NCBI GenBank assembly: GCA_001793095.1
Contig: MGHG01000008.1
Location: 269 to 64,268 of the forward strand
DNA from: Candidatus Woesebacteria bacterium RIFCSPLOWO2_01_FULL_39_23
Lineage (GTDB): Bacteria > Patescibacteriota > Microgenomatia > UBA8517
DNA: 64,000 bases
Reading direction: 5' to 3'
Position 1 is the stretch's first letter, and each line of letters opens with the position of its first letter. Below, piece after piece: positions 8,801-64,000 of the stretch. The translations under genes and the position numbers were made by a program. The notes under the pieces were generated by a model. The model had not been told where the DNA came from, made no database searches, and saw only the letters and a list, made by a program, of their open reading frames with translations.

Positions 8801-9457
8801 ATGAAAAAGGTAATTATTTATTACGATTTTATAATTGTAAGCCTCATTGTTTTAGCGGGATTTTTCTCGGCTGAAAATATCTATCAGCTCCTTAGTGCCT
8901 CTATTTACTACCCAATCTTAATTTACTTCTTAACATTGATTATTCCGAGAAGGCAAAAGGCAGTTGTCCTCCCCAAGGAAATCGAACCAGTTACTAAAGT
9001 TATAAAACCCGGAGAAAAGGAGGAAAAACTAGAGAAACTTACAAAGATTAAGACTGGTAAAATAGATAAGGACAGACGAGTATTTTTAAAAATCATCGGA
9101 ACGGCAGGAGCAACAGCCTTCATCTTTTCAATTTTTGGAGTTAAGAAAGCCCAGGCCGCATTCTTCGGCAGCGTTCCAGGTCCGGGAATTGTCGGACTCA
9201 AAGATATTGCCGGAAATAGGATCGATCCGGCACAACATCATCCGACCGACGGGTATAAAATCAGCCGCCTGGATGATTCCTCACCCGCCTATTACGGCTT
9301 TACCAATAAAGAAGCTGCATGGTTTATCATGAAAGAAGACAGCTCGGGTAATTATACGTATGCCGTAGGTTCATCCGGTTTTGATACAAACTGGACCAAC
9401 AGAAATGTCGCTCCCCCCACCGGCCCAACCTATGGTGAATTTTACGACATGTTCTAG
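8801..9457 (+). CDS. Hypothetical membrane-anchored protein with an internal twin-arginine-like motif (DRRVFLKIIGTAGATAF...AQA)
   Basis: Two N-terminal TM helices, then an RRxFLK motif, h-region and AQA, then a soluble domain. Confidence 0.4.
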   Translation: MKKVIIYYDFIIVSLIVLAGFFSAENIYQLLSASIYYPILIYFLTLIIPRRQKAVVLPKEIEPVTKVIKPGEKEEKLEKLTKIKTGKIDKDRRVFLKIIGTAGATAFIFSIFGVKKAQAAFFGSVPGPGIVGLKDIAGNRIDPAQHHPTDGYKISRLDDSSPAYYGFTNKEAAWFIMKEDSSGNYTYAVGSSGFDTNWTNRNVAPPTGPTYGEFYDMF

Positions 9458-39695: not shown

Positions 39696-39778
39696 AGATC
39701 TATTCTATCCTACCCCAAGTCAAGCTTAAATTACCTATTGCAATTCATCAAACGACTAACTATTATAAGGTCAATCAT

Positions 39779-39973
39779 ATGTTTAGTTCACTTCGCAACA
39801 TCGGTCTTCCGGAAATACTTATTATCGCAGCAGTTCTCGTTTTACTCTTCGGAGGCAAAAAGATCAGAGAGCTATCGCGAGGCCTGGGTGAATCGACAAA
39901 AGAGTTGAAAAACATTAAAAAAGAGATTAAGGGTGAAACGGAAGAGGAAAAAGTAGCCCATACGACTGAATAA
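39779..39973 (+). CDS. tatA: Twin-arginine translocase subunit TatA/E, paralog 1
   Basis: GLPEILIIAAVLVLLFGGKKIRELSRGLGESTKELK, the canonical TatA TM helix plus amphipathic helix. Confidence 0.8.
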   Translation: MFSSLRNIGLPEILIIAAVLVLLFGGKKIRELSRGLGESTKELKNIKKEIKGETEEEKVAHTTE

Positions 39974-39979
39974 AATACT

Positions 39980-40120
39980 ATGCGTAATATCGGCACAACT
40001 GAACTCGTAATTATTGCACTTATACTTCTTTTCCTGTTCGGTGGCAAGAAAATTCCCGAATTTATCAAAGGCCTCGGCAAAGCTATTGAGGAATTTCGCC
40101 GCGCTTCAAAGGAAAGCTAA
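39980..40120 (+). CDS. tatA: TatA paralog 2 (46 aa; below the ORF-track length cut-off)
   Basis: Translation MRNIGTTELVIIALILLFLFGGKKIPEFIKGLGKAIEEFRRASKES; ATG 7 nt after the previous stop. Confidence 0.7.
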   Translation: MRNIGTTELVIIALILLFLFGGKKIPEFIKGLGKAIEEFRRASKES

Positions 40121-40130
40121 CTCTCTATTG

Positions 40131-40260
40131 CCCCACACCAATTCCAGCTAAGTTTTCGGACACCTTTACTGTGAAATGCGAAATGCCTCAATCTGGTATT
40201 AAGCCGATTTCGGCTCCCAGAAGTTAAATTTCGGTGACCTCGTGTAGAATTTGTGCGGGG
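40131..40260. repeat. Degenerate copy of the CCCCGCACC hairpin element (CCCCACACCAATTCCAGCTA ... TAGAATTTGTGCGGGG), ORF-less
   Basis: Arms resemble the 23S IVS and GIY-YIG element arms with 3-4 mismatches; lies between tatA2 and tatA3. Confidence 0.45.
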
Positions 40261-40296
40261 CTTGCACTTTAGCTTTGAACAAACTATCATTTTAAT

Positions 40297-40593
40297 ATGC
40301 TAGGTAATCTTGGATCTCCTGAAATTTTAGTCATAGGAATAGTTCTTCTCATGCTTTTCGGCAGTAAAAAACTTAATGAACTTGCACGCGGACTCGGTGA
40401 ATCCTCGAAAGAATACAAAAAGCTTAAAAACGAATATCAAAAAGCACTTAATGACGACCCTGACGTTGAAGAACAATCTACATCCGAAGATAGTGTAACT
40501 TTAAAATCTGAAAGGTCTCCGACCCGGAGGGTCTCTCCCCGAGCTGGAGAGCTCTCTGAGCAGGAAGCTGGCCTGGAAGGAGGTGAAGAGTAA
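40297..40593 (+). CDS. tatA: TatA/TatB-like paralog 3 with acidic C-terminal extension
   Basis: LGSPEILVIGIVLLMLFGSKKLNELARGLGESSKEYKKLK, then a D/E/S-rich tail. Confidence 0.75.
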   Translation: MLGNLGSPEILVIGIVLLMLFGSKKLNELARGLGESSKEYKKLKNEYQKALNDDPDVEEQSTSEDSVTLKSERSPTRRVSPRAGELSEQEAGLEGGEE

Positions 40594-40740
40594 ATGCTAG
40601 GAAGATTCGGCGTAGCTGAACTATTAATTATTGCATTTCTTTTAGTCCTATTCTTTGGCGGAAAGAAAATTCCGGAATTTATACGAGGTTTAGGTGAAGC
40701 AGTTCGTGAATTTAAAAAAGGTGCCAAGGAAGAAAAGTAA
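40594..40740 (+). CDS. tatA: TatA paralog 4 (48 aa; missed by the ORF track)
   Basis: MLGRFGVAELLIIAFLLVLFFGGKKIPEFIRGLGEAVREFKKGAKEEK; ATG directly abuts the previous stop (TAAATG). Confidence 0.7.
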   Translation: MLGRFGVAELLIIAFLLVLFFGGKKIPEFIRGLGEAVREFKKGAKEEK

Positions 40741-40791
40741 AGCACAAGACCAAAATTCGTCGACACATATGCCCTAGCCAGAGACTGCTAT

Positions 40792-41538
40792 ATGGAAGAA
40801 GAAAGTTTCCTACCGGCGACGATACAGGACAGCTTCAATAAATATTTTCCGTATCTGATGGAGATCAGGAAGAGATTGTTTTTTATTGCAGCTATTTTTC
40901 TCGTTTCCGGGATATTTGGGTTTATTTATTATGAAAAAATAATAAGTACAATCCTGCATCTTCTGAACCTGACCGGTGTAAATATTGTCTTTACCTCGCC
41001 CTTCCAGTTTTTTACCTTATCTATAAATAGTGGATTTTTAGTTGGAGTGATTGTGTCCGCCCCGCTCATTTTCGCTCAAATCCTCTCTTTTATAAGGCCT
41101 GCGCTGACCAAAAAGGAATATAAAATTACAATTACTCTTCTCCCCGTCACTATAATTCTTTTCATCCTGGGATTTTTTTACGGTGTATCAATTATGAAAT
41201 ACATCGTGACCATCTTCTACCAAAAATCACAAGAGCTTAATATCGGGAATCTTCTGGACATCAACCTGCTGCTTGGAAAAATAATAACAACGGGCATCCT
41301 TCTCGGAGTTGCCTTTGAATTTCCTATCATTATGACTATTTTAATGCGACTTAATGTCATTAAATACAAAGACTTTATCAAACAGAGATTTTTGGCATAT
41401 TGCGTAGCAATTATATTTGCCGCACTTCTTCCTCCAACCGATATCCTGTCACTGATGCTTTTGACTCTTCCACTTGTAATGCTCTTTGAACTTACGCTAA
41501 TATTGAATAAGCTATTTTTAAAATCGCATTTATTATAA
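40792..41538 (+). CDS. tatC: Twin-arginine translocase subunit TatC
   Basis: Six TM helices with TatC-like spacing (EIRKRLFFIAAIFLVSG ... FAQILSFIRPALTKKE). Confidence 0.75.
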   Translation: MEEESFLPATIQDSFNKYFPYLMEIRKRLFFIAAIFLVSGIFGFIYYEKIISTILHLLNLTGVNIVFTSPFQFFTLSINSGFLVGVIVSAPLIFAQILSFIRPALTKKEYKITITLLPVTIILFILGFFYGVSIMKYIVTIFYQKSQELNIGNLLDINLLLGKIITTGILLGVAFEFPIIMTILMRLNVIKYKDFIKQRFLAYCVAIIFAALLPPTDILSLMLLTLPLVMLFELTLILNKLFLKSHLL

Positions 41539-41552
41539 TAAATTAGCGGGAG

Positions 41553-41844
41553 CCCCGCACCTGATTCTGGCTATGCATTATGTGTATGTTATTCAGAGTA
41601 TAAAATCTTATGAAATATACATCGGCTCTACAAAGAATCTAAAATTAAGACTTGGTAAACATAATGCAAATAAGAATACATCGACAAAAAATAGAGGACC
41701 CTGGATGTTAATTTACACAGAAGTATACAGATCAAAAGACGATGCGACGGAACGGGAATTCCGTCTTAAATACTATGGACGCGCCCTGGCTCAATTAAAA
41801 AGAAGACTCGTTAGGAGTCTTTTGAAGCCAGAATAGGTGCGGGG
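41553..41844 (+). mobile_element. Hairpin element (arms CCCCGCACCTGATTCTGG / CCAGAATAGGTGCGGGG) whose loop is exactly filled by a GIY-YIG ORF
   Basis: ~17-bp inverted repeats at 41553-41570 and 41828-41844. The ATG follows arm 1 by 2 nt and the TAG stop lies within arm 2. Confidence 0.65.
41573..41836 (+). CDS. GIY-YIG nuclease family protein (87 aa)
   Basis: MHYVYVIQS..EIYIGSTKNLKLRLGKHN; inserted between tatC and tatA5. Confidence 0.75.
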   Translation: MHYVYVIQSIKSYEIYIGSTKNLKLRLGKHNANKNTSTKNRGPWMLIYTEVYRSKDDATEREFRLKYYGRALAQLKRRLVRSLLKPE

Positions 41845-41857
41845 GAGGTGATAACTA

Positions 41858-42001
41858 ATGGTAAAAGGTATCGGATCAACTGAATTAATTATTATTGCGA
41901 TTATACTTTTAATTCTTTTCGGCGGAAGGAAATTGCCTGAGCTGGGACGCGGGCTTGGTGAATCAATAAGAGAGCTGAAAAAATCGATGAAAAACAAATA
42001 A
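41858..42001 (+). CDS. tatA: TatA paralog 5 (47 aa; missed by the ORF track)
   Basis: MVKGIGSTELIIIAIILLILFGGRKLPELGRGLGESIRELKKSMKNK; SD GGGGGAGGTG 7 nt upstream. Confidence 0.7.
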   Translation: MVKGIGSTELIIIAIILLILFGGRKLPELGRGLGESIRELKKSMKNK

Positions 42002-42021: not shown

Positions 42022-42438
42022 ATGATGCCAGTTATCCTTTTATCGGTCTTATTTCTCCCCTTTGTACTCTGGCCTGTTGAAAAACTTCTCCCCTTCCCTT
42101 TTTTAGTTGAGGAACTAGTCAAAGTCATTTATATACTCTTGATTATTAAGGAGGAAGAAGCGACGAAAGAGCGATTAATATCGGCGACTGTTGTCGGAGT
42201 CCTTTTTGCGCTAAGTGAGAGCTTTTTCTTTCTTTTGAATATCCAGGCTGTAGGCACACCTTCAACTCTTGTGACGCGACTTGTTTTAACACTACCGCTT
42301 CATGTCGTGACAACTGTCTTAATTATGTTACCTACTTTACTTAATAAGAAACTGATTATTCTAGGGTTTATCCTCGCTGCTACGCTGCACTTTCTATTCA
42401 ATATGGGGGTAACTAAGTTAGCGAACGGACCATTTTAA
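42022..42438 (+). CDS. Hypothetical membrane protein
   Basis: ORF with 4 hydrophobic helices. Confidence 0.4.
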   Translation: MMPVILLSVLFLPFVLWPVEKLLPFPFLVEELVKVIYILLIIKEEEATKERLISATVVGVLFALSESFFFLLNIQAVGTPSTLVTRLVLTLPLHVVTTVLIMLPTLLNKKLIILGFILAATLHFLFNMGVTKLANGPF

Positions 42439-43053: not shown

Positions 43054-45957
43054 CTATTCCGACACTATTGAAGTATATTCTGAGCTAACCCACCCCGAAG
43101 TTCCATCCTGAAGTTCAATCTCATACCACCCATTATCTTCTCCTAGCAGTCTATATTTTTCCCCGGGTAATACCTTCGTTATTTCTCCACCTGATGGCTT
43201 TTCCCTGACTCTTAACCAACCCGTTGAGGTATTAAGAATCAGTACCACGGAGACAGTCGGTTCTTCCTTGACATCATCTTCTGCCGCATTGGGAGAAGTA
43301 ACAGCTTCTTCAACATAATCACCTGAGACCCAACCCGCAACTGTCCCCTCGCCTACCAAACCTGCATCTCCGCTTGTCTTACCAGATGCTGGCAAGAGAT
43401 GCGCTGCAATTGCTACATTTACCCAATCTCCATCCTCACTGATCTTTACAGCGTCCAAACTATCTATTAATTTTGCAAGTATTTTATCTTCTTTCGACGG
43501 TCCTTCTCTTAAATTGAGCTTAGAACCAAGGGGAACGTTAATTCTAACAATTTCCTGGCCACCAACGGCATTTGTTTTAGTTTTATCCTCCGCAACTGGT
43601 GCTGGAGTTATCGCATCCCCTTGCTTTTTTTCCTCAACATTGTCCTTGTTTTGTGAAGTCTCCATCTCCCGCCTTACCGAATTTGAAACAACTCCGGCGA
43701 CAATAAATCCGGAGGCTAGTGCAACGACGATTCCGAAGACACCGAAAGATATTCCGAATTTAATCCACCTTCCTACATTGACGCTTCTCTCAGACGTCGA
43801 GATACCTGTTGGTCCTTGTTTCTCACCTTTACCTTTTCTAGATTTAGATTTTCCGCTTGACGCTTTCTTCATAAAGACAACCATCAGTACAAAACCCGTT
43901 ATCATAATAATGATGAGTCCCCAAACAGTAAGTGCATTTACACTTCCTATGAAACCGAAAAGCGTACCTGTTGATGCAGCTAGGGTAACCAAATCCTGAA
44001 GCTTTGCCAACTTTGTCTCCACCGCATTTTTTTCTATCAAAGCTTCCCTATATGCGCGGATTCTTTGCTCGGGGGTGATCGCTTTCTTTTGCAGGGACAG
44101 GATCTTATCTAAGGACGCATCAATATCGCTTTTAAGAGTTACTCCTTGGGCAAAATATGACGTTTTCTCTAAAGGTCTTGAGAGATCAATTGCCTGTGAT
44201 CTAAAACTATCAACCTCGTCTTTTCCAATTACAAAAATATCTTCAAGCCGGATAGCGAGAACTCGCGTTTCATTTACCCTTAAAGGAATTTTTCCGTCAA
44301 CGTAATACTGATTTTTTTCCACATCATATTTAACCGACAAGAGATCGTCGTGGGAGAGAACGTCCTCTTCGCGAATTTCGGGTGGTAAATAATACTTCAA
44401 GATAGCCTCCTGACTGATTAACTTGGATGGATTGATAACCAGGGATTTAATTATTACACTACCCTCTTCAAGCCATGAACTCGCAATATAGGAGCTTGCT
44501 CCTTTTGCTAATAATAGTTTATTGGCAACGAGTAACCCCCTCATAGACAACAGAGAGTTTTTCTGACTTTTTTCAGGCGAGTTAGCATCTGCCGTCTTAC
44601 TGTCCAGCACAACCGACCCCTTCGGTACCTGGTTCACAGCGAGAACTTTTCTTTTCAAATCGCTGATTTTAGTCATCAGATCTTTGTCTCCCCGGACTGA
44701 ATCCCAATTAGTCAAAAGCTTCTCGACCTCACTCTGCCTGCCGTCCAGAGCCAGCGCAATACTCTCGGTCTTTTTAATTTTCCCGTATAAAGTACCATCA
44801 GATTGAATATCAGTCGCCGTACCGATCAATTTCTCAAGGCTTACTGAATTGGTAAATAGATTTTGAAGATCTTTCTTAGCACTTTTATCTCCCTTACCGG
44901 AACCGAGTGACGTTTGAATTGAGACTAAACCCTCTTTCAAGTTTGAAGTCTCAGCATTAATCTTCTCCCCCTCGTCCCAGTTCCAGGAATCATTAATCCA
45001 ATTTATCGACCCGTAAAGCGTATTAGTATTTTCAACATCGGACTCTTCACCCGCTAACTCGTTAAGCTCAATTACCTGGTCCAAAACCTGGCTTTCGGCT
45101 GTCTTCTCATAATTTTTTATAAGTGTTCCGATTTTACTGACGATATACTGATTATTTACGTAGAGTTGGTTTGCAACAGCCTTTGTTTCAGTTATTTTGG
45201 AATTCAAATCAGGTACATCATCCTCCAGTGAATATTCAATAATTGGCTTATTGACAAGTTTTTCTAGAAGGAGCCTCGTATCATCGGCCGTATCTTTTAC
45301 ATTGTTAATTTCGGTTGTAAGAGAAGTTATTCCCGATCCGGTAGCATTCGTCAAATCGGTTTTTGTCGCAATTGAACCGCTAGTTAAGCTCGGGTCTGTA
45401 AGAGTTCTTGATGAATTACTCCACATATTAGAAATGAGCGTCCCAAAAGTTGATAGCGACCTGGTCGAATAGCTCCAAATGTCACCAGCTAAACTCCCAA
45501 AACTTGAAAGTGTTCTTGAAGAATAACCCCAAACAGCACTGGCTATTGCGTCGGGGTCCGACGAGGTTGCTGCATCCGTTACTTCAAAATCTTTATCAAC
45601 GCATAACAATTCTGAACTGACAGTACAACAAACTTGTGTACGATAATAACCTGTCGTCGCCGGTGCTGTGAATTCATACGAGTACCACCCGTCAGACTCA
45701 GCTGCCGGAGGCATATTTTGATTGTCTAAATAAGACGTACCGTCTGGGTAACGGCTGGTGATGCTACAAATATCCGGAGTTGTTATCGGAGTGTACTCGT
45801 CATCGTACAAAAACTCACCGATGCCACACTCACTACCTACTGTACATGTTTGCGGGCTGCCTGCCGAAGCCCTGGCTAAATTTACATTACCAGCCAGGGC
45901 AAGGGCAGAGGCTGCCAAAAACGCCGAAATAGTTATAGCCTTCTTGGCAGTAGTCAT
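43054..45957 (-). CDS. Large secreted/membrane-anchored surface protein with coiled coils, a TM segment and two C-terminal SH3b domains
   Basis: Signal peptide MTTAKKAITISAFLAASALALA; central TM LIIIMITGFVLMVVF; SH3b-like GWLRVREKPSGGEITKVLPGEKYRLLGEDNGWYEIEL. Confidence 0.55.
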   Translation of the reverse strand: MTTAKKAITISAFLAASALALAGNVNLARASAGSPQTCTVGSECGIGEFLYDDEYTPITTPDICSITSRYPDGTSYLDNQNMPPAAESDGWYSYEFTAPATTGYYRTQVCCTVSSELLCVDKDFEVTDAATSSDPDAIASAVWGYSSRTLSSFGSLAGDIWSYSTRSLSTFGTLISNMWSNSSRTLTDPSLTSGSIATKTDLTNATGSGITSLTTEINNVKDTADDTRLLLEKLVNKPIIEYSLEDDVPDLNSKITETKAVANQLYVNNQYIVSKIGTLIKNYEKTAESQVLDQVIELNELAGEESDVENTNTLYGSINWINDSWNWDEGEKINAETSNLKEGLVSIQTSLGSGKGDKSAKKDLQNLFTNSVSLEKLIGTATDIQSDGTLYGKIKKTESIALALDGRQSEVEKLLTNWDSVRGDKDLMTKISDLKRKVLAVNQVPKGSVVLDSKTADANSPEKSQKNSLLSMRGLLVANKLLLAKGASSYIASSWLEEGSVIIKSLVINPSKLISQEAILKYYLPPEIREEDVLSHDDLLSVKYDVEKNQYYVDGKIPLRVNETRVLAIRLEDIFVIGKDEVDSFRSQAIDLSRPLEKTSYFAQGVTLKSDIDASLDKILSLQKKAITPEQRIRAYREALIEKNAVETKLAKLQDLVTLAASTGTLFGFIGSVNALTVWGLIIIMITGFVLMVVFMKKASSGKSKSRKGKGEKQGPTGISTSERSVNVGRWIKFGISFGVFGIVVALASGFIVAGVVSNSVRREMETSQNKDNVEEKKQGDAITPAPVAEDKTKTNAVGGQEIVRINVPLGSKLNLREGPSKEDKILAKLIDSLDAVKISEDGDWVNVAIAAHLLPASGKTSGDAGLVGEGTVAGWVSGDYVEEAVTSPNAAEDDVKEEPTVSVVLILNTSTGWLRVREKPSGGEITKVLPGEKYRLLGEDNGWYEIELQDGTSGWVSSEYTSIVSE

Positions 45958-45962
45958 AGAAT

Positions 45963-46109
45963 TTAGATTTTCTCTTTGGTAGCTTTTCTGAATTCTCTTA
46001 CAGAATCGGCTACTCCCTTTGATAACTCAGGAAGTTTTCTGCCGCCAAATAGAAACAACATAACCAAAGAAATTACTACTAATTCTGGGGTTCCAATGTT
46101 GCTTAACAA
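45963..46109 (-). CDS. tatA: TatA paralog 6 (48 aa; TTG start; missed by the ORF track), 5 nt upstream of the 967-aa surface-protein gene
   Basis: Minus-strand translation (M)LSNIGTPELVVISLVMLFLFGGRKLPELSKGVADSVREFRKATKEKI; SD AAGGAGGTGA 5 nt upstream of the TTG. Confidence 0.65.
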   Translation of the reverse strand: MLSNIGTPELVVISLVMLFLFGGRKLPELSKGVADSVREFRKATKEKI

Positions 46110-46414
46110 GTTAATCACCTCCTTTTTTTGCTAGAGAGGTCGGCGCCCAGTATCTTTGCTAAATTTAAACTAATGGATCCGGAATCAAGATTACGCTTGT
46201 ATCCAGACTGTTTTAGTGTTTGCTAAATGCAATGAATTGTTAAAGGTCCGGGCAGACAACTTATCTTTAACTAGCATATCCAGTATGTAGAGGTTAATTT
46301 GTCTTGTCAATAGCCATTTACAGGCATATCTATTCTTATCATAATCTTATCGCTATTTATATATTTAGCCTTACAAAAGTCGGTGAATTGGCAATTTGAC
46401 ACGATGATATAATT

Positions 46415-59332: not shown

Positions 59333-59536
59333 ACATCATAACCACCTTTCTAGTTTAGATCCTGATTTTATAACAAATTGCTACCTATAACAAGGGATAA
59401 TTTCTCGGGTGGAGCCTAAATCCAGAACACTGTCCTGGCCACGGTACAAATCTTACTTGCTCCCGAAAACTACATGTTCGCATCGCAAGAGCAATTATAC
59501 GTGGCAGGCGGATTTTTTATAATTTCAGAATACTGT

Positions 59537-59652
59537 CCTGGCGATGAGCTATTTTCGCGGTGAGTTGCCCCACAACTATCGTCGCCGCTGATCCGTTTCA
59601 CTTCTGAGTTCGGAATGGATTCAGGTGGTACCAGACCGCTCCGATCACCAGG
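59537..59652 (-). rRNA. rrf: 5S ribosomal RNA
   Basis: Reverse complement reads CCTGGTGATCGGAGCGGTCTGGTACCACCTGAATCCATTCCGAACTCAGAAGTGAAAC...ATCGCCAGG, with terminal helix 1 pairing. Confidence 0.85.
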
Positions 59653-59995
59653 ACACTATCCTGAAACAGTAAATTTATTAAAGTCCTCCGAAACTAACCT
59701 TAAGGCTTTTCAGTACTATTCATACACGCCTTAAGGAGCGTTTACAGGAGGATTTCGGTACAAACTAATTTGTACCTCAAAAATTGAGGAGAAAGAAAAA
59801 AGTCTTACTGCAAAAATGCAGAAGATCTTTAGTATAAAGTCTTATCGACTTATTCGGATCAGGTTAGCTTAAGACATTACTGTCCTTCCACACCCTGCCG
59901 AACAACCCGTCTCGCTCTTGCGAGCCAGACGAGGTTCGCCTTGCGGCGACCTGGTATTCTTCCAGGAGTCTAAAATGAACCCTAATCTTAGGAGG

Positions 59996-60028
<33 letters not shown>

Positions 60029-60154
60029 CTTGGGAATATAGCTACCCGGCTTTGCGGCTGACGCCACAACCGGCACACCAGAGATTCCCCCATGCTGGTC
60101 CTCTCGTACTGAGCACAGCTTCCTTCAAGGTTCTACGATTCCACCGGATAGAGT

Positions 60155-60187
<33 letters not shown>

Positions 60188-60753
60188 ACGTACCACTTTA
60201 ATGGGCGAACAGACCAACCCTTGGCACCTTCTCCAGCGCCAGGATGTGGTGAGCCGACATCGAGGTAGCGATCCGCGCCGTCGCTATGGACGCTCGGGCG
60301 CGACTACTCTGTTATCCCCGGGGTAGCTTTTATCCGTTAAGCTCCAACCCTTCCATGCAGGATTGGAGGATCACTAAGACCTACTTTCGTACCTGCTTGA
60401 GCCGTCACTCTCGCAGTCAAGCTGGCTTTTGCCTTTATACATTACGCACGATGTCCATCCGTGCTAAGCCAACCTTTGTACCCTTGCGTTACTCTTTGGC
60501 AAGGTACCGCCCCAGTAAAACTGCCCACCTAACACTTTCCCTTCCCGAGTATTCATCGGGATTAGGTAAGACTTGCCACGCTCTAAAGGGAGGTGTTTCA
60601 GTGTCGCTCGCGCATAGCTCGCAAATGTCAAATTACAAAAAAGCAAATGATAAATTAGTTTCATTTAGCATTCATCTTTTTAGCATTTAGCATTTCCGTG
60701 CTACACACGGGCTCCCTCCTACTCTAAACAATTAGATCGCACAAACCAATGTT

Positions 60754-60790
<37 letters not shown>

Positions 60791-60858
60791 GTGGAATTAG
60801 GCCGCGTCTTCACAGCCAACGCAATTTCGCCGAGTAGAGGCTTGAGACAGTTGCTAAC

Positions 60859-60895
<37 letters not shown>

Positions 60896-60922
60896 GAGGG
60901 ACTTCGCTACCGTAGAACAGTT

Positions 60923-61357
60923 CAATATGTTATCCCGATCGAATCCGGGACTACGATTTTACGTAGACTGCATATTGCTATGCAGATCGGACTATATCAT
61001 CCACGTTCATGTAAACTGAACGTAGCCTAGCGTGTAGTCTCTGAGGATTCCTTCAAAAATTACTAATTGACTTAATTGCTCTAATTTCTAACAAATTATT
61101 TAATGACCAATTTCAAATGACTAAAACAAAACTTAGTTGGGTCATTCTTAAATTGGGGTTTGATTAGGTTAATTAGAAATTAGTAATTAGAAATTACTTG
61201 GAGGCCTTTCCTGCTGATTGTCCGCACTGATCGCATTGTTACCATTTTAAATGGTAGCGTCAGATACTTCAACTGTTCGTTATTTCCATTCTACTTGAAA
61301 ATCACTACAGTACGGATATTCCAGCATATAGCTAGGTTTTAGAACTACGACTATTTC
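60923..61357 (-). mobile_element. ORF-less group I intron in 23S rRNA at the L1917-1923-type site (between GUAACUAU and AACUGUUCUACGGUAGCG)
   Basis: 5' exon ends in U and pairs with the internal guide GUAGUU (U.G at the splice site); intron ends in G. Core elements present: Q-like AATCAGCAGG, R TCAGAGACTACACG, S GATATAGTCCG. Confidence 0.7.
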
Positions 61358-61606
61358 ATAGTTACTGCTGCCGTTTACCGGAGCTTGACATTGCTGCGCT
61401 TCGCGCAAAAAAGCCAAATTATAAAAAACAAAATGATAAATTAAATTCATTTAGCATTTGCCTTTTGGTCATTTAACATTCTTTGTGCGAAGCACAACGC
61501 CGCTTAACTTACCGGCACTGGGCAGGCGTCAGCCCGTATACTTTGCCTTTCAGCTTTGCACGGACCTGTGTTTTTGATAAACAGTCGGTTAGCAAACATT
61601 TGCTGC

Positions 61607-61743
61607 GCCCCGCACCAATTTAGCAGCTGATTCTCCAAAATATGAATCCTACTTATATAAAACTTAAGTAATATTATTCAAGTTAAATATAAAATAAGAC
61701 TCAAATTCGAATCAGTAATATTTTCTGCTAAATTGGTGCGGGG
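61607..61743 (-). repeat. 23S rRNA intervening sequence 1 (helix-63 region): 19-bp perfect stem GCCCCGCACCAATTTAGCAG / CTGCTAAATTGGTGCGGGG with ~98-nt AT-rich loop
   Basis: Inserted at the tip of a native helix; arms share the TIR family of the GIY-YIG elements. Confidence 0.7.
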
Positions 61744-62120
61744 AGGATATCTTCCGAAGTTACATCCAGCTTTTTTGCCGAGTTCCTTAAACCTCTTTCT
61801 CTCGCTCGCCTTACTATTCTCTAGCTGCCCACCTGTGTTGGTTTGCGGTACGACTTGATTTAGATCTCGCTGCGAACCTTTTCTTGTAGACAGAATGGGA
61901 TAAAATTGCCCCAATCTCTTAGGGCTCTGCATTGCTGCTTGATTAATCGTTTCAGCGGATTTTCCAACTGACCCTATCTAACAGCTTACACCCCGATATC
62001 ACATCGGGACTTTAATCATCCTATCCAGTCAATCCCCAGCTCCACGTTCAGTACTTGCGCATGAACGTGGTGGGCGATCTAAAACAAATAGTGGAATTTT
62101 AACCACTCATCCATCGACTA

Positions 62121-62258
62121 CCCCCGCACCAAAATGGCATCTTATTTTCCAAAATATGAATCTTACTCTTAATAATCACTAAACTATATTCTTCAAATAA
62201 ATTATTAAGGTTAATCTGATCCAATTAAGGTAATATTTTATGCCACTTAGGTGCGGGG
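62121..62258 (-). repeat. 23S rRNA intervening sequence 2 (helix-45 site): stem CCCCCGCACCAAAATGGCAT / ATGCCACTTAGGTGCGGGG
   Basis: Replaces the E. coli GAGGCC-GAAA-GGC tetraloop hairpin; ~100-nt AT-rich loop shares TCCAAAATATGAATC with IVS 1. Confidence 0.7.
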
Positions 62259-62636
62259 CTCATCTTAGGTATCGACTAACCCGTCGTGGACGAACCTAGC
62301 GACGGAAACCTTGGGCTTACGGCGTCCCAGATTCTCACTGGGATTGTACGCTACTCATACCGGCATTCTCACTTCCGTACCTTCCACTCCGCCTCACGGC
62401 GAAGCTTCACTGGATACGGAACGCTCCCCTACCACACCCGCTCGCAGAGCGGGAATGACCAATTTCCAATGGCAAATAACCAATGTATTATTAGAAGCCA
62501 TATTTAAACTTACTGCTTCTTTTACATTTAGCATTTATCATTTAGCATTTATCATTCCTGTTCTACGAACAGGTATCTCTAGCTTCGGCACGCAACTTAT
62601 CCTCGATAAATTTTAGGCGCCTGCTTCCATCGACCA

Positions 62637-62693
<57 letters not shown>

Positions 62694-63204
62694 TTACGGA
62701 AACCGACTTCCTTTCAAACTTAGCTGCGATTTAGAGGCCTTAGCCGAGAGTCTGGGTTGTTTCCCTTTGGACGCATCAGCTTAGCCCGATGCGACTGTCT
62801 AGTACGTTGTTATATATTGTTATTCGGAGTTTGGTTGAATGAAATTGCTTGCGCTCTCTCATCCATCCAGTATCTCTACCATCAATATACTTTTCGTACC
62901 ACGGTCCCTATAGACCTTTCGGGGAGAACCAGCTATCTCCAGGCTCGGTTGGCATATTACCACTATCCACAAGTCATCCCACGTTATTGCAACAACGACG
63001 GGTTCGGGCCTCCTTCCAATCTTCATCGGAATTCACCCTGCTCATGGCTAGATCGCCTGGTTTCGGGTCGGCCATCAGATACTCGTTACCAAAAGGTAAC
63101 ACGCGCTATTCGCACTCGGTTTCCCTTCACCTCCACCCGTTTAAGGGTTTAGATAGTTATCTAACGGCCACTCGCCGGCTCATTCTTCAATAGGCACGAT
63201 ATCA

Positions 63205-63341
63205 CCCCGCACCAAGTTGGCAGAAAATATTTCATTGATTTGAATGTTAACATTAACTAAACTTTAAGTTTATTGAAAGTTTAAACAATAAATAAACTCA
63301 TGTCTCATATTTTGAAAATCAGCTGCCAATTTGGTGCGGGG
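63205..63341 (-). repeat. 23S rRNA intervening sequence 3 (helix-25 site): stem CCCCGCACCAAGTTGGCAG / CTGCCAATTTGGTGCGGGG
   Basis: Classic IVS position (helix 25); one G.U in an otherwise perfect 19-bp stem. Confidence 0.7.
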
Positions 63342-63406
63342 CTCTATCGGTTTGTCCGCAAACAGTTTCAGGTTCTATTTCACTGGGCGTCTCGCCCTTC
63401 TTTTCG

Positions 63407-63438
<32 letters not shown>

Positions 63439-63661
63439 ATCTACCTATATTTAGCCTTGGAGGATGGTTCCCCCAGCTTCCCACGGTGTAGATGCACCGT
63501 GGTACTTGGGATATTCCTAAGATTCTTTATAAATTTTGTATACAAGACTTTCACTTTCTATGGTGTACCATTCCAGATACTTCTACTATTCATAAAGAAC
63601 CCATATTGGAATCCCGCAACCCTGCGCCCATATTCTTGCGAATATGGGGCAGTTTAGGCTA

Positions 63662-63693
<32 letters not shown>

Positions 63694-64000
63694 TCTCGTT
63701 TGATTTATTTTCCTCACCCTACTTAGATGTTTCAGTTCGGGCGGTCTCCCCCGCTACGGTTATACCCCGACAAGTCGGGATTTTTACCATAGGGTAACCA
63801 AATATAATTATGGTTGGGTTTCCCCATTCGGACACCGTCGGATCAATGGATCGTGGCTCCTCCCCGGCGATTATCGCAACCATGTGCGTCCTTCTTCGGT
63901 AGGTAAATCCTAGGCATTCACTGTCTGCGTTAGTAAAGACTTCAATTACGTTCCTGTACGACCCCGCAATAAAGCGAGATATTACAGGAAACGGCCTTTC

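Follow-up and report, generated by a model that had tools for sequence, protein, structure and literature searches.

Several conserved types of TatA surround a single tatC in an expanded Tat locus of a Woesebacteria genome

The system for twin-arginine translocation (Tat) is, to our knowledge, the only general route by which folded proteins cross energised membranes, and the division of work among its TatA-type subunits is still being worked out. Here we describe the Tat locus in a stretch of 64,000 nucleotides from the groundwater bacterium Candidatus Woesebacteria bacterium RIFCSPLOWO2_01_FULL_39_23 (GenBank assembly GCA_001793095.1, contig MGHG01000008.1, positions 269 to 64,268 of the forward strand). 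This whole stretch is called the window in the following, and all coordinates count from its first letter. The locus comprises six TatA-family genes and a single tatC gene. The genomes of this lineage have a size of about 1 Mb, and bacteria of the candidate phyla radiation are usually described as having minimal machinery.

In the systems described so far, the number of TatA-family genes is between one and three. E. coli possesses TatA, TatB and TatE, B. subtilis possesses TatAd, TatAy and TatAc together with two TatC proteins, and C. jejuni possesses TatA1 and TatA2 (PMC3827258, PMC5777986; for the last species also PMC4148689). Half of the bacterial classes with tatC have only tatA and tatC (PMC3827258). 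The core of the translocase is a TatC trimer, on which the helices of TatA and TatB share a site by means of a polar residue at position 8, and the functional core of E. coli was reported in 2026 to be asymmetric with the composition TatA1B2C3 (PMC13323110). Microgenomatia, Paceibacteria and Saccharimonadia are stated to possess TatA and TatC, and this note on presence or absence is all that the open-access literature gave on Tat in bacteria of the candidate phyla radiation (PMC9166423). Text matching in the open-access literature gave no account of over three TatA paralogs or of six to eight TatA genes per tatC, and none of four conserved types of TatA or of the pairing of the long and short types that are called L and S below.

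Five of the six tatA genes of the window (A1 to A5) lie within 2.2 kb, and the sixth (A6) is located about 4 kb away on the opposite strand. The order on the forward strand is A1 (39779..39973, 64 amino acids (aa)), A2 (39980..40120, 46 aa), A3 (40297..40593, 98 aa), A4 (40594..40740, 48 aa), tatC (40792..41538, 248 aa) and A5 (41858..42001, 47 aa), and A6 (45963..46109, 48 aa) is encoded on the reverse strand. The scores of A1 to A6 with the Pfam model PF02416 are 48.6, 50.1, 46.5, 43, 55.9 and 49.2 bits, respectively, so that the six span 43-56 bits (E = 2.7e-11 to 2.5e-15) and all lie above the gathering score of 21 bits. TatC matches PF00902 with 138 bits, and its TIGR00945 score of 123.6 bits is just below the cut-off of 132.7. 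A profile built from the six TatA proteins and run on all six frames of the 64-kb window did not reveal any further TatA copy (the next match has E = 0.5), and a six-frame scan of the same window did not reveal a second tatC. The start codon of A4 (ATG) immediately follows the stop codon of A3. A GGAGG sequence is located upstream of A4 and a GGAGGTG sequence upstream of A5, and A1, A2, A3 and tatC are devoid of a Shine-Dalgarno sequence. In the case of A6, the TTG codon at 46109 is the likelier start compared to the GTG codon at 46118 (51 aa), since a GGAGGTG sequence is found at a distance of 6 nt upstream of the former and abuts the latter.

These results agree with an earlier sequence-only reading, a note made by a model from the DNA letters, which had proposed five tatA genes around tatC within 2.2 kb and a sixth copy at 45963-46109, for which it had chosen the TTG start that we also consider the better one. 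Its description of the genes as a tandem of tatA and tatC holds true insofar as all these genes are present, but it did not mention that an open reading frame (ORF) for a GIY-YIG nuclease (41573-41836) intervenes between tatC and A5. It had also stated that three of the tatA genes are below the length detected by ORF callers. Indeed, of the six tatA genes only those for 64, 98 and 48 aa are found in the GenBank record MGGL01000014.1 (GCA_001792375.1), and A2, A5 and A6 (46, 47 and 48 or 51 aa) are absent from it. However, since the annotation includes just one of two 48-aa genes, this omission does not follow from a simple length cut-off. It is a matter of gene-caller scoring and not of a hard length limit. 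The gene calls of JGI and ENA on identical DNA comprise five of the six tatA genes each, with differing subsets, and in the sister GenBank record MGFU01000060.1 (locus L087; labels of this kind denote Microgenomates tat loci compared with the window) A2 and A5 are unannotated though both frames are intact. With half of the tatA family missing from GenBank records, annotation-based surveys of Tat undercount these lineages.

Comparison with related loci shows that all six tatA genes are real genes under purifying selection. Four closer relatives with a TatC identity of 69-74% (L085, L087, L089 and L090) possess the same six genes in the same order and with the same neighbours. Measured against these four, the silent sites of the tatA genes are saturated, with proportions of synonymous differences (pS) of 0.85, 0.73, 0.77, 0.73, 0.83 and 0.62 for A1 to A6, and the proportions of nonsynonymous differences (pN) are 0.29, 0.17, 0.31, 0.11, 0.18 and 0.11. 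A4 and A6 are more conserved than tatC itself, for which pN is 0.18. The paralogs share 37-57% identity on the amino acid level and 61-74% on the DNA level over a core of 72 nt and are therefore not recent copies. A repeat search revealed only these tatA cores next to short repeats at chance level, and it did not pick up a gapped inverted repeat that local alignment revealed around the GIY-YIG ORF. Moreover, each of the six genes is closer to a gene at the same position in a foreign genome than to any paralog in its own genome.

The residues that characterize TatA are retained as well. An alignment of the six proteins shows that the Phe-Gly pair of the hinge (F21, G22) is invariant and that all of them possess a Glu in the membrane helix, at its N-terminal end and at the position equivalent to position 8 in E. 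coli (E9 of A3). The succession of a short N-terminal membrane helix, the hinge and an amphipathic helix is likewise kept in all six. Among 245 collected TatA-family homologues, this Glu is present in 244, the hinge Phe in 243 and the hinge Gly in all 245. A degenerate duplication, which the sequence-only reading had named as one of the outcomes that would speak against its claim, was therefore rejected: pN is much lower than pS, the hinge and the Glu are near-universal, and none of the six copies has lost its key residues or escaped purifying selection. By family matches and selection alike, the existence of an expanded Tat locus with genuine tatA paralogs next to one tatC in a reduced-genome bacterium is thus well established.

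In order to place the six genes, 20 Microgenomates TatC proteins were aligned and the alignment was used as query to collect 80 species-level loci from Woese-, Gottesman-, Davies-, Roizman-, Ames- and Levybacteria and from unnamed Patescibacteria; the comparative survey comprised approximately 85 Microgenomates loci in total. According to six-frame scans, tatA genes flank tatC in nearly all of the 80 loci, and there is one tatC per related locus (loci of up to 20.7 kb). Many contigs that share the tat layout and encode a TatC with 50-61% identity (for instance L006, L010 and L012) are titled as uncultured Gammaproteobacteria or Pseudomonadales, and these titles are probably taxonomic mislabels of the deposited metagenome-assembled genomes.

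When the TatA cores were aligned by hmmalign and compared across species, the nearest foreign neighbour of a gene was usually found at the same position of its locus. This applies to the proximal upstream gene U1 (64 of 72), to the distal upstream gene U2 (60 of 64), to the first downstream gene D1 (43 of 45) and to the distal gene X (31 of 32), so that position in the locus predicts sequence. Four types of TatA can be distinguished in this way. Type L is located upstream of tatC, is longer than type S (median of 65.5 vs 53 aa) and has an acidic tail. Type S adjoins tatC on its upstream side and is short with a KKIPEF…EF signature. Type D lies directly downstream of tatC, and type X is found in a distal position on the opposite strand. 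Of the S, D and X proteins, 59 of 73, 42 of 45 and 31 of 32, respectively, possess a proline at the fifth residue past the hinge Gly, compared to just 2 of 64 L proteins. The amphipathic helix of E. coli TatA contains a conserved and important phenylalanine, F39. A Phe in this helix is shared by 58 of 72 S, 29 of 39 D and 28 of 32 X proteins, and by 6 of 64 L proteins, type L having Ile, Leu or Val instead.

Hidden Markov models (HMMs) for the four classes, which were trained solely on loci with at most four tatA genes and then applied to larger loci, label A1 to A6 as L, S, L, S, D and X. The margins amount to 5-11 bits (A1: L 84 vs S 76; A2: S 85 vs X 78; A3: L 82 vs S 77; A4: S 78 vs D 67; A5: D 90 vs X 81; A6: X 88 vs 77). 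The individual sequences fit these labels. A1 has no Pro after the hinge, a Leu at the position of the helix Phe and an acidic tail; A2 contains FGGKKIPEF…EEF, A3 contains FGSKKLNEL…KEY followed by a long acidic tail, and A5 and A6 contain KKLPELGRGLGES and KKLPELSKGVADSVREFRKA, respectively. The closest relatives of A1 are the genes at the same position in L075, L006 and L022, and those of A2 are U5 of L005, D1 of L075 and U3 of L006. Hierarchical clustering of the cores separated only type L from the rest, and the split of S, D and X is based on the nearest-neighbour and class-HMM tests.

The motif FGGKK[IL]PE[FL]..GLG..REF, which had been attributed to each copy in the sequence-only reading, fits four of the six proteins; A1 and A3 lack the proline and carry Leu and Tyr, respectively, in place of the helix Phe. 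The latter residue is retained in A2, A4 and A6 and replaced in the three others, since A5 also has a Leu here. The copies are real genes, as had been assumed, but instead of equivalent tandem repeats they represent four old orthologous types, with the L-S pair occurring twice. Also the view that such an expansion is unusual needs some modification. Six tatA genes were found at 2 of 50 loci, and the expansion is not peculiar to this genome: the four closer relatives share the six-gene layout.

These 50 loci are those with at least 2 kb upstream and at least 6 kb downstream of tatC, and all layout counts refer to them. One tatA gene is present in 1 locus, two in 16, three in 12, four in 17, five in 1, six in 2 and eight in 1, so that two to four tatA genes around tatC are the norm. 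The most common layouts are L-S-tatC (16 loci) and L-S-tatC-D…X (14 loci), and L-S-tatC is the minimal Microgenomates set. In the window, the order is L-S, again L-S-tatC-D followed by a gene for a PrsW-like protein, and at some distance X with the gene for a surface protein. The largest set was observed in a marine Patescibacteria locus (L005; JAHJHG010000006.1, 8838-10895 and 14689-14847) with eight tatA genes and one tatC in the order L-S-L-S-L-S-tatC-D…X, that is, with three long-short pairs upstream and one tie between L and S. An alternation of L and S was assigned by the class HMMs also in L006, L022 and L085, and L075 possesses the same six types as the window in a rearranged order. 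In a separate clade (L066, L067, L069, L083 and L084; L080 is incomplete), tatC is followed by four tatA genes in the order long-short-long-short and there are none upstream, which is an independent arrangement of the L-S theme. Judging from these layouts, the repeated unit looks like the L-S pair, duplicated as a pair.

We therefore propose, with moderate confidence, that the locus may encode one Tat translocase, in which a single TatC works with specialised TatA isoforms and L and S are non-redundant partners. L and S would be partner subunits of the core and would divide the labour in a TatB-like and a TatA-like manner within the TatA/E branch, in the absence of a canonical TatB. The L-S unit would have been duplicated as a pair, apparently with an own promoter for each pair, and D and X would be further isoforms that could enter either this TatC trimer or the assembly of TatA that is recruited during transport. 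One TatC would thereby carry translocases that vary in their composition. Several observations argue for the partnership of L and S: they always co-occur, also in the minimal loci, they alternate when they are multiplied, and they differ at positions adjacent to the hinge and in the amphipathic helix. In addition, the solved TatC-trimer core hosts TatA and TatB at one site via the polar residue at position 8, and all six TatA proteins of the window have a Glu there.

There are also results that weigh against this proposal. All six proteins score higher on the TatA/E model than on the TatB model, for which they reach only 22.8-33.2 bits (TIGR01410, cut-off 56.5). For five of the six, TIGR01411 ranks first or second among the NCBIfam models, although its cut-off of 53.9 is passed by A5 alone (56.6) and the others remain at 47.5-52.8 bits. 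The L profile matches the solved TatA chains with 43.8 bits and the TatB chains with 30.5 and 16.5 bits, and the corresponding values for the S profile are 59.2 bits and 35.9 and 23.9 bits. The hinge reads FG[GS] in all six proteins and LGP in the solved TatB of E. coli, N. salsuginis and M. xanthus. For these reasons (sub-cut-off TIGR01410 scores, an F-G instead of a G-P hinge and a better match to the TatA chains), the identification of L as TatB by sequence was rejected, and any TatB-like role of L would have arisen independently. Furthermore, the class-HMM margins are small, and for the A3 orthologues in L089 and L090 the S model gives the slightly higher score. Proteins of approximately 45 residues do not allow a tree to be resolved, the alternation being the one basis for a duplication in pairs. 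Among the paralogs of its own genome, A2 has nearly the same similarity to A6 and to A4. Finally, a single twin-arginine protein family was found in 1.35 Mb of related DNA, which fits oddly with a machine of such complexity.

An AlphaFold2 model of A3, calculated from the alignment of the six sequences (pLDDT 68.7), shows a helix from residue 7 to 51 in which the hinge break is not resolved, and a non-helical part of low confidence from residue 52 to 98. TatB proteins are characterised by a greater length and an extended helical stretch past the hinge. The A3 model, which is of modest quality and low depth, does not separate L from S.

Among the alternatives, the one that fares best assumes paralog sets for particular conditions or cargoes (A1-A2, A3-A4-tatC-A5, and A6 with its surface protein), which share one TatC. 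This explanation overlaps with the partnership of L and S and differs from it mainly in that L and S would have the same role. We regard it as a real possibility, if a rather doubtful one. It draws on promoter-like sites in front of A1 and A3. A consensus scan gave a weak site TTGCAA-17-TATTAT (39738..39766, forward strand) 12 nt ahead of the A1 start codon, and a site TTGCAC-17-TATCAT read from the sequence (40262..40290, forward strand) ends 6 nt ahead of the ATG of A3. The spacer between A2 and A3 (100-180 nt) is divergent in L085, L087 and L090 except for TTGCA and TATCAT/TATGAT blocks at a distance of 17 nt, so that the -35 and -10 blocks of A3 are the sole conserved parts. This weakly suggests two transcription units, A1-A2 and A3-A4-tatC-A5-prsW, each of them near-leaderless at its first gene. 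Another weak promoter-like sequence, TTGACA-17-CATACT, is located ahead of A6 (46310-46282), and A6 forms a separate pair on the opposite strand with a large secreted protein, as is the case for type X at 31 loci. In B. subtilis, the gene of a dedicated substrate adjoins the tat genes, and the substrates differ between the systems (PMC3827258). However, the numbers of promoters and terminators found by scanning the region are not above the shuffled expectation, for which reason the assignment of two units is weak. Unlike in B. subtilis, the window and each related locus contain a single tatC. Above all, L and S always occur together and alternate, and they do so even in two-gene loci, which would be unexpected for self-sufficient alternatives. 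A search with Rfam at the gathering threshold gave no match of an RNA family within the tat locus.

A second alternative places some of the paralogs outside of the classical Tat pathway. Type X might aid the passage or anchoring of a surface protein of 750-1100 aa that lacks a twin-arginine (RR) signal, and the PrsW-like protein might process TatA or signal peptides. The basis for this is the genomic neighbourhood. At 31 loci, the type-X tatA is followed at a spacing of -17 to +14 nt by the gene for a protein of 510-1124 aa, and X is translationally coupled to this large surface protein. The N-termini of the large proteins resemble signal peptides, but an Arg-Arg pair is present in only 2 of the 31. 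With 29 of the 31 signal peptides lacking this pair, the large SH3 protein was rejected as a Tat substrate. In the window, the partner of A6 is a secreted, membrane-anchored protein of 967 aa (43054..45957, reverse strand; SH3_3, 60.7 bits), whose gene starts 5 nt after the A6 stop codon. This protein has a signal peptide, contains hydrophobic segments in its interior and carries SH3 domains at its C-terminus. The surface proteins paired with X share a conserved mature N-terminus, …C.VG..C.[IV]GEF[LV]YDD.Y.P.

The gene for the PrsW-family putative intramembrane protease (42022..42438, forward strand, 138 aa; PF13367, 31.6 bits) lies 20 nt after A5 and is a conserved operon partner. At 35 of the 39 loci with a homologue, it comes after tatC or after the type-D tatA in the same orientation, 24-390 nt past tatC, and it is in place also in the four closer relatives. 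EExxK, LH and HxxxN motifs can be recognised by eye in the protein. The protein could conceivably be linked to the processing of TatA or signal peptides, and according to PMC3712462 the TatA of Providencia stuartii is activated by cleavage through a rhomboid protease. However, the TatA proteins of the window have no evident N-terminal extension that could be removed, and adjacency alone is no proof of a functional link. Type X, for its part, keeps every hallmark of TatA including the Glu for docking to TatC and is, with a pN of 0.11, the most conserved paralog. A role of these genes apart from classical Tat transport therefore appears somewhat unlikely to us.

Elements of this idea can be combined with the proposed partnership of L and S. 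Each of the four types could have its own place in the TatC trimer or next to it, which would represent an independent route to an asymmetric core. The duplicated L-S pairs would then provide alternative cores, and X would extend the function of TatA to a giant client without RR signal, which TatC would not read in the classical manner. In its full extent, such a multi-isoform Tat system of the Microgenomates is speculative and we judge it unlikely.

A mere effect of gene dosage is less plausible again. TatA is needed in large excess, with TatA:TatB:TatC ratios of approximately 20-50:1:1 according to a preprint (bioRxiv 10.1101/2025.09.29.679310), and many copies with the same job could meet this demand in a small genome with little regulation. 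The common motifs of S, D and X would be in line with this. However, dosage copies are usually young and alike, and the paralogs of the window are only 37-57% identical, belong to orthologous groups that are older than species with a TatC identity of only 50-60%, have conserved class-specific residues, and each type has its fixed position in the locus. We therefore consider dosage as the reason for the expansion distinctly improbable. That the small ORFs are non-functional, either chance ORFs or decaying duplicates, could be argued from the three genes absent from the GenBank annotation and from the lack of Shine-Dalgarno sequences at A1, A2, A3 and tatC, but given Pfam E-values of 1e-11 to 1e-15, low protein change at saturated silent sites in all six, frames and positions conserved in more than 80 species-level loci and the invariant Glu and Phe-Gly residues, its probability is close to nil.

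In TatC of the window, E24 and E109 are invariant in 20 homologues. In E. coli, E15 and E103 of TatC contact the two arginines of the signal (PMC13323110), and E24 and E109 are taken to correspond to these two residues, matched by motif (LxEhRxR; PALxxxE) and not by a computed alignment. As TatC thus retains the arginine-reading Glu pair, classical RR signals should be recognised.

Twin-arginine signals were searched for with home-made rules and not with TatP or TatFind, and this rule-based scan yielded one credible RR-signal in the window. It belongs to a candidate Tat substrate of 218 aa (8801..9457, forward strand), which consists of an N-terminal domain with two hydrophobic helices, a linker, and an internal twin-arginine signal KDRRVFLKIIGTAG…AQA that is followed by AFFGSVPGPG (full segment: KDRRVFLKIIGTAGATAFIFSIFGVKKAQA|AFFGSVPGPG). 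There is no start codon near the twin-arginine motif. Homologues with a [DN/K]RRxF[IL]K motif are encoded at nine loci within 10 kb of tatC (L010, L011, L015, L016, L027, L028, L031, L059 and L083), and in all ten proteins, that of the window included, the same frame encodes, upstream of the signal, a domain containing between two and four hydrophobic helices. The signal is followed by a domain of approximately 95 aa that begins with AFFGSVPGPG. The window protein has no Pfam match, and no cofactor domain was recognised in it. The family resembles dual Sec/Tat membrane proteins, in which N-terminal helices inserted by Sec are followed by a last hydrophobic segment preceded by RR and by a folded outer domain (PMC5449189), in that its N-terminal hydrophobic helices likewise precede a later hydrophobic segment with RR in front. 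However, a site resembling an AxA cleavage site follows this segment. It is possible that the protein is a dual Sec/Tat membrane protein or, alternatively, a cleaved Tat substrate.

With regard to the remaining genes of the region, the stand-alone GIY-YIG nuclease ORF between tatC and A5 (41573-41836, forward strand, 87 aa; PF01541, 64.5 bits) is a local insertion outside of the Tat system, which is found at this site in this genome only and looks like a small mobile element. By local alignment, it is bounded by a 19/20-nt inverted repeat (41553-41572 and 41826-41844; CCCCGCACCTGATTCTGGCT and AGCCAGAATAGGTGCGGGG). It is absent at this position in the four closer relatives, and the only other tblastn match lies 6 kb upstream of tatC in L076. 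The sequence AGAATnnGTGCGGGG occurs twice, at 40246-40260 in the spacer between A2 and A3 and at 41830-41844 at the right end of the GIY-YIG insertion, and the copy at 40246-40260 forms the hairpin GTGCGGGGCTTGCAC. Upstream of the tat locus, genes for a beta-helix (NosD-like) protein and a peptidyl-tRNA hydrolase are located. Farther away, the window contains a 5S rRNA gene at 59536-59652 and a 23S rRNA gene on the reverse strand (59833-63944), which comprises 4112 nt compared to 2925 nt in the Rfam model, with approximately 1.2 kb inserted. ORFs of at least 70 aa in the enlarged 23S region have no Pfam match. An enlarged 23S rRNA gene fits to a member of the candidate phyla radiation.

With one TatC and four to eight conserved TatA isoforms, an L-S pair always among them, the Tat system of this lineage can be regarded as a natural experiment on the question which residues turn a TatA protein into a receptor partner and which into a pore or membrane-thinning subunit. 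It bears on whether a TatB-like role is possible without the TatB hinge and whether one TatC can serve several TatA sets. An elaborate export system is kept in these reduced genomes, yet few recognisable substrates are encoded in the DNA examined. The locus is thus of relevance for Tat specialists as well as for the cell biology of ultrasmall bacteria.

Compared to the known systems, the locus shows similarities to three of them. The TatAC systems of Gram-positive bacteria, exemplified by TatAd-TatCd, TatAy-TatCy and TatAc of B. subtilis, likewise have no canonical TatB and several TatA proteins per genome (PMC9166423, PMC3827258, PMC5777986). The TatA proteins of B. subtilis are short and contain …FG.KK[IL]PE… after the hinge, as do types S, D and X. 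The tat genes may be adjoined by the gene of a substrate or client, and the envelope is thought to be monoderm, both of which is shared with the Microgenomates. However, the three TatA and two TatC proteins of B. subtilis are organised in separate pairs, whereas here six TatA genes surround one TatC gene in the 64 kb searched. In addition, the Microgenomates pair a long L without proline with S, and this layout is conserved across a group on the level of a candidate phylum.

The TatABC systems of E. coli, other Gram-negative bacteria and actinobacteria, and of chloroplasts (Tha4/Hcf106/cpTatC), have the gene order tatA-tatB-tatC, which resembles L-S-tatC in that tatC is directly preceded by two different TatA-family genes, one of them longer and more divergent. 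In both arrangements, the membrane helix of either partner carries a polar residue at its start, and the Glu pair of TatC is shared as well. In contrast to them, L is not a TatB by sequence, the L-S pair of the window is duplicated, and D and X are added.

The third group are systems with an auxiliary TatA, such as TatE of E. coli, TatA_1/TatA_2 of Vibrionales and TatA1/TatA2 of C. jejuni, where extra TatA proteins have distinct signatures and there is evidence or argument for non-redundancy (PMC5777986, PMC4148689). These systems comprise one added paralog, which is often encoded at a distant site and set apart by its N-terminal charges (E3xxxxK8). The TatA genes of the Microgenomates, in contrast, are clustered, and the six proteins described here all have a Glu at the position-8 equivalent and differ from each other in the proline near the hinge, the aromatic residue of the amphipathic helix and the tail.

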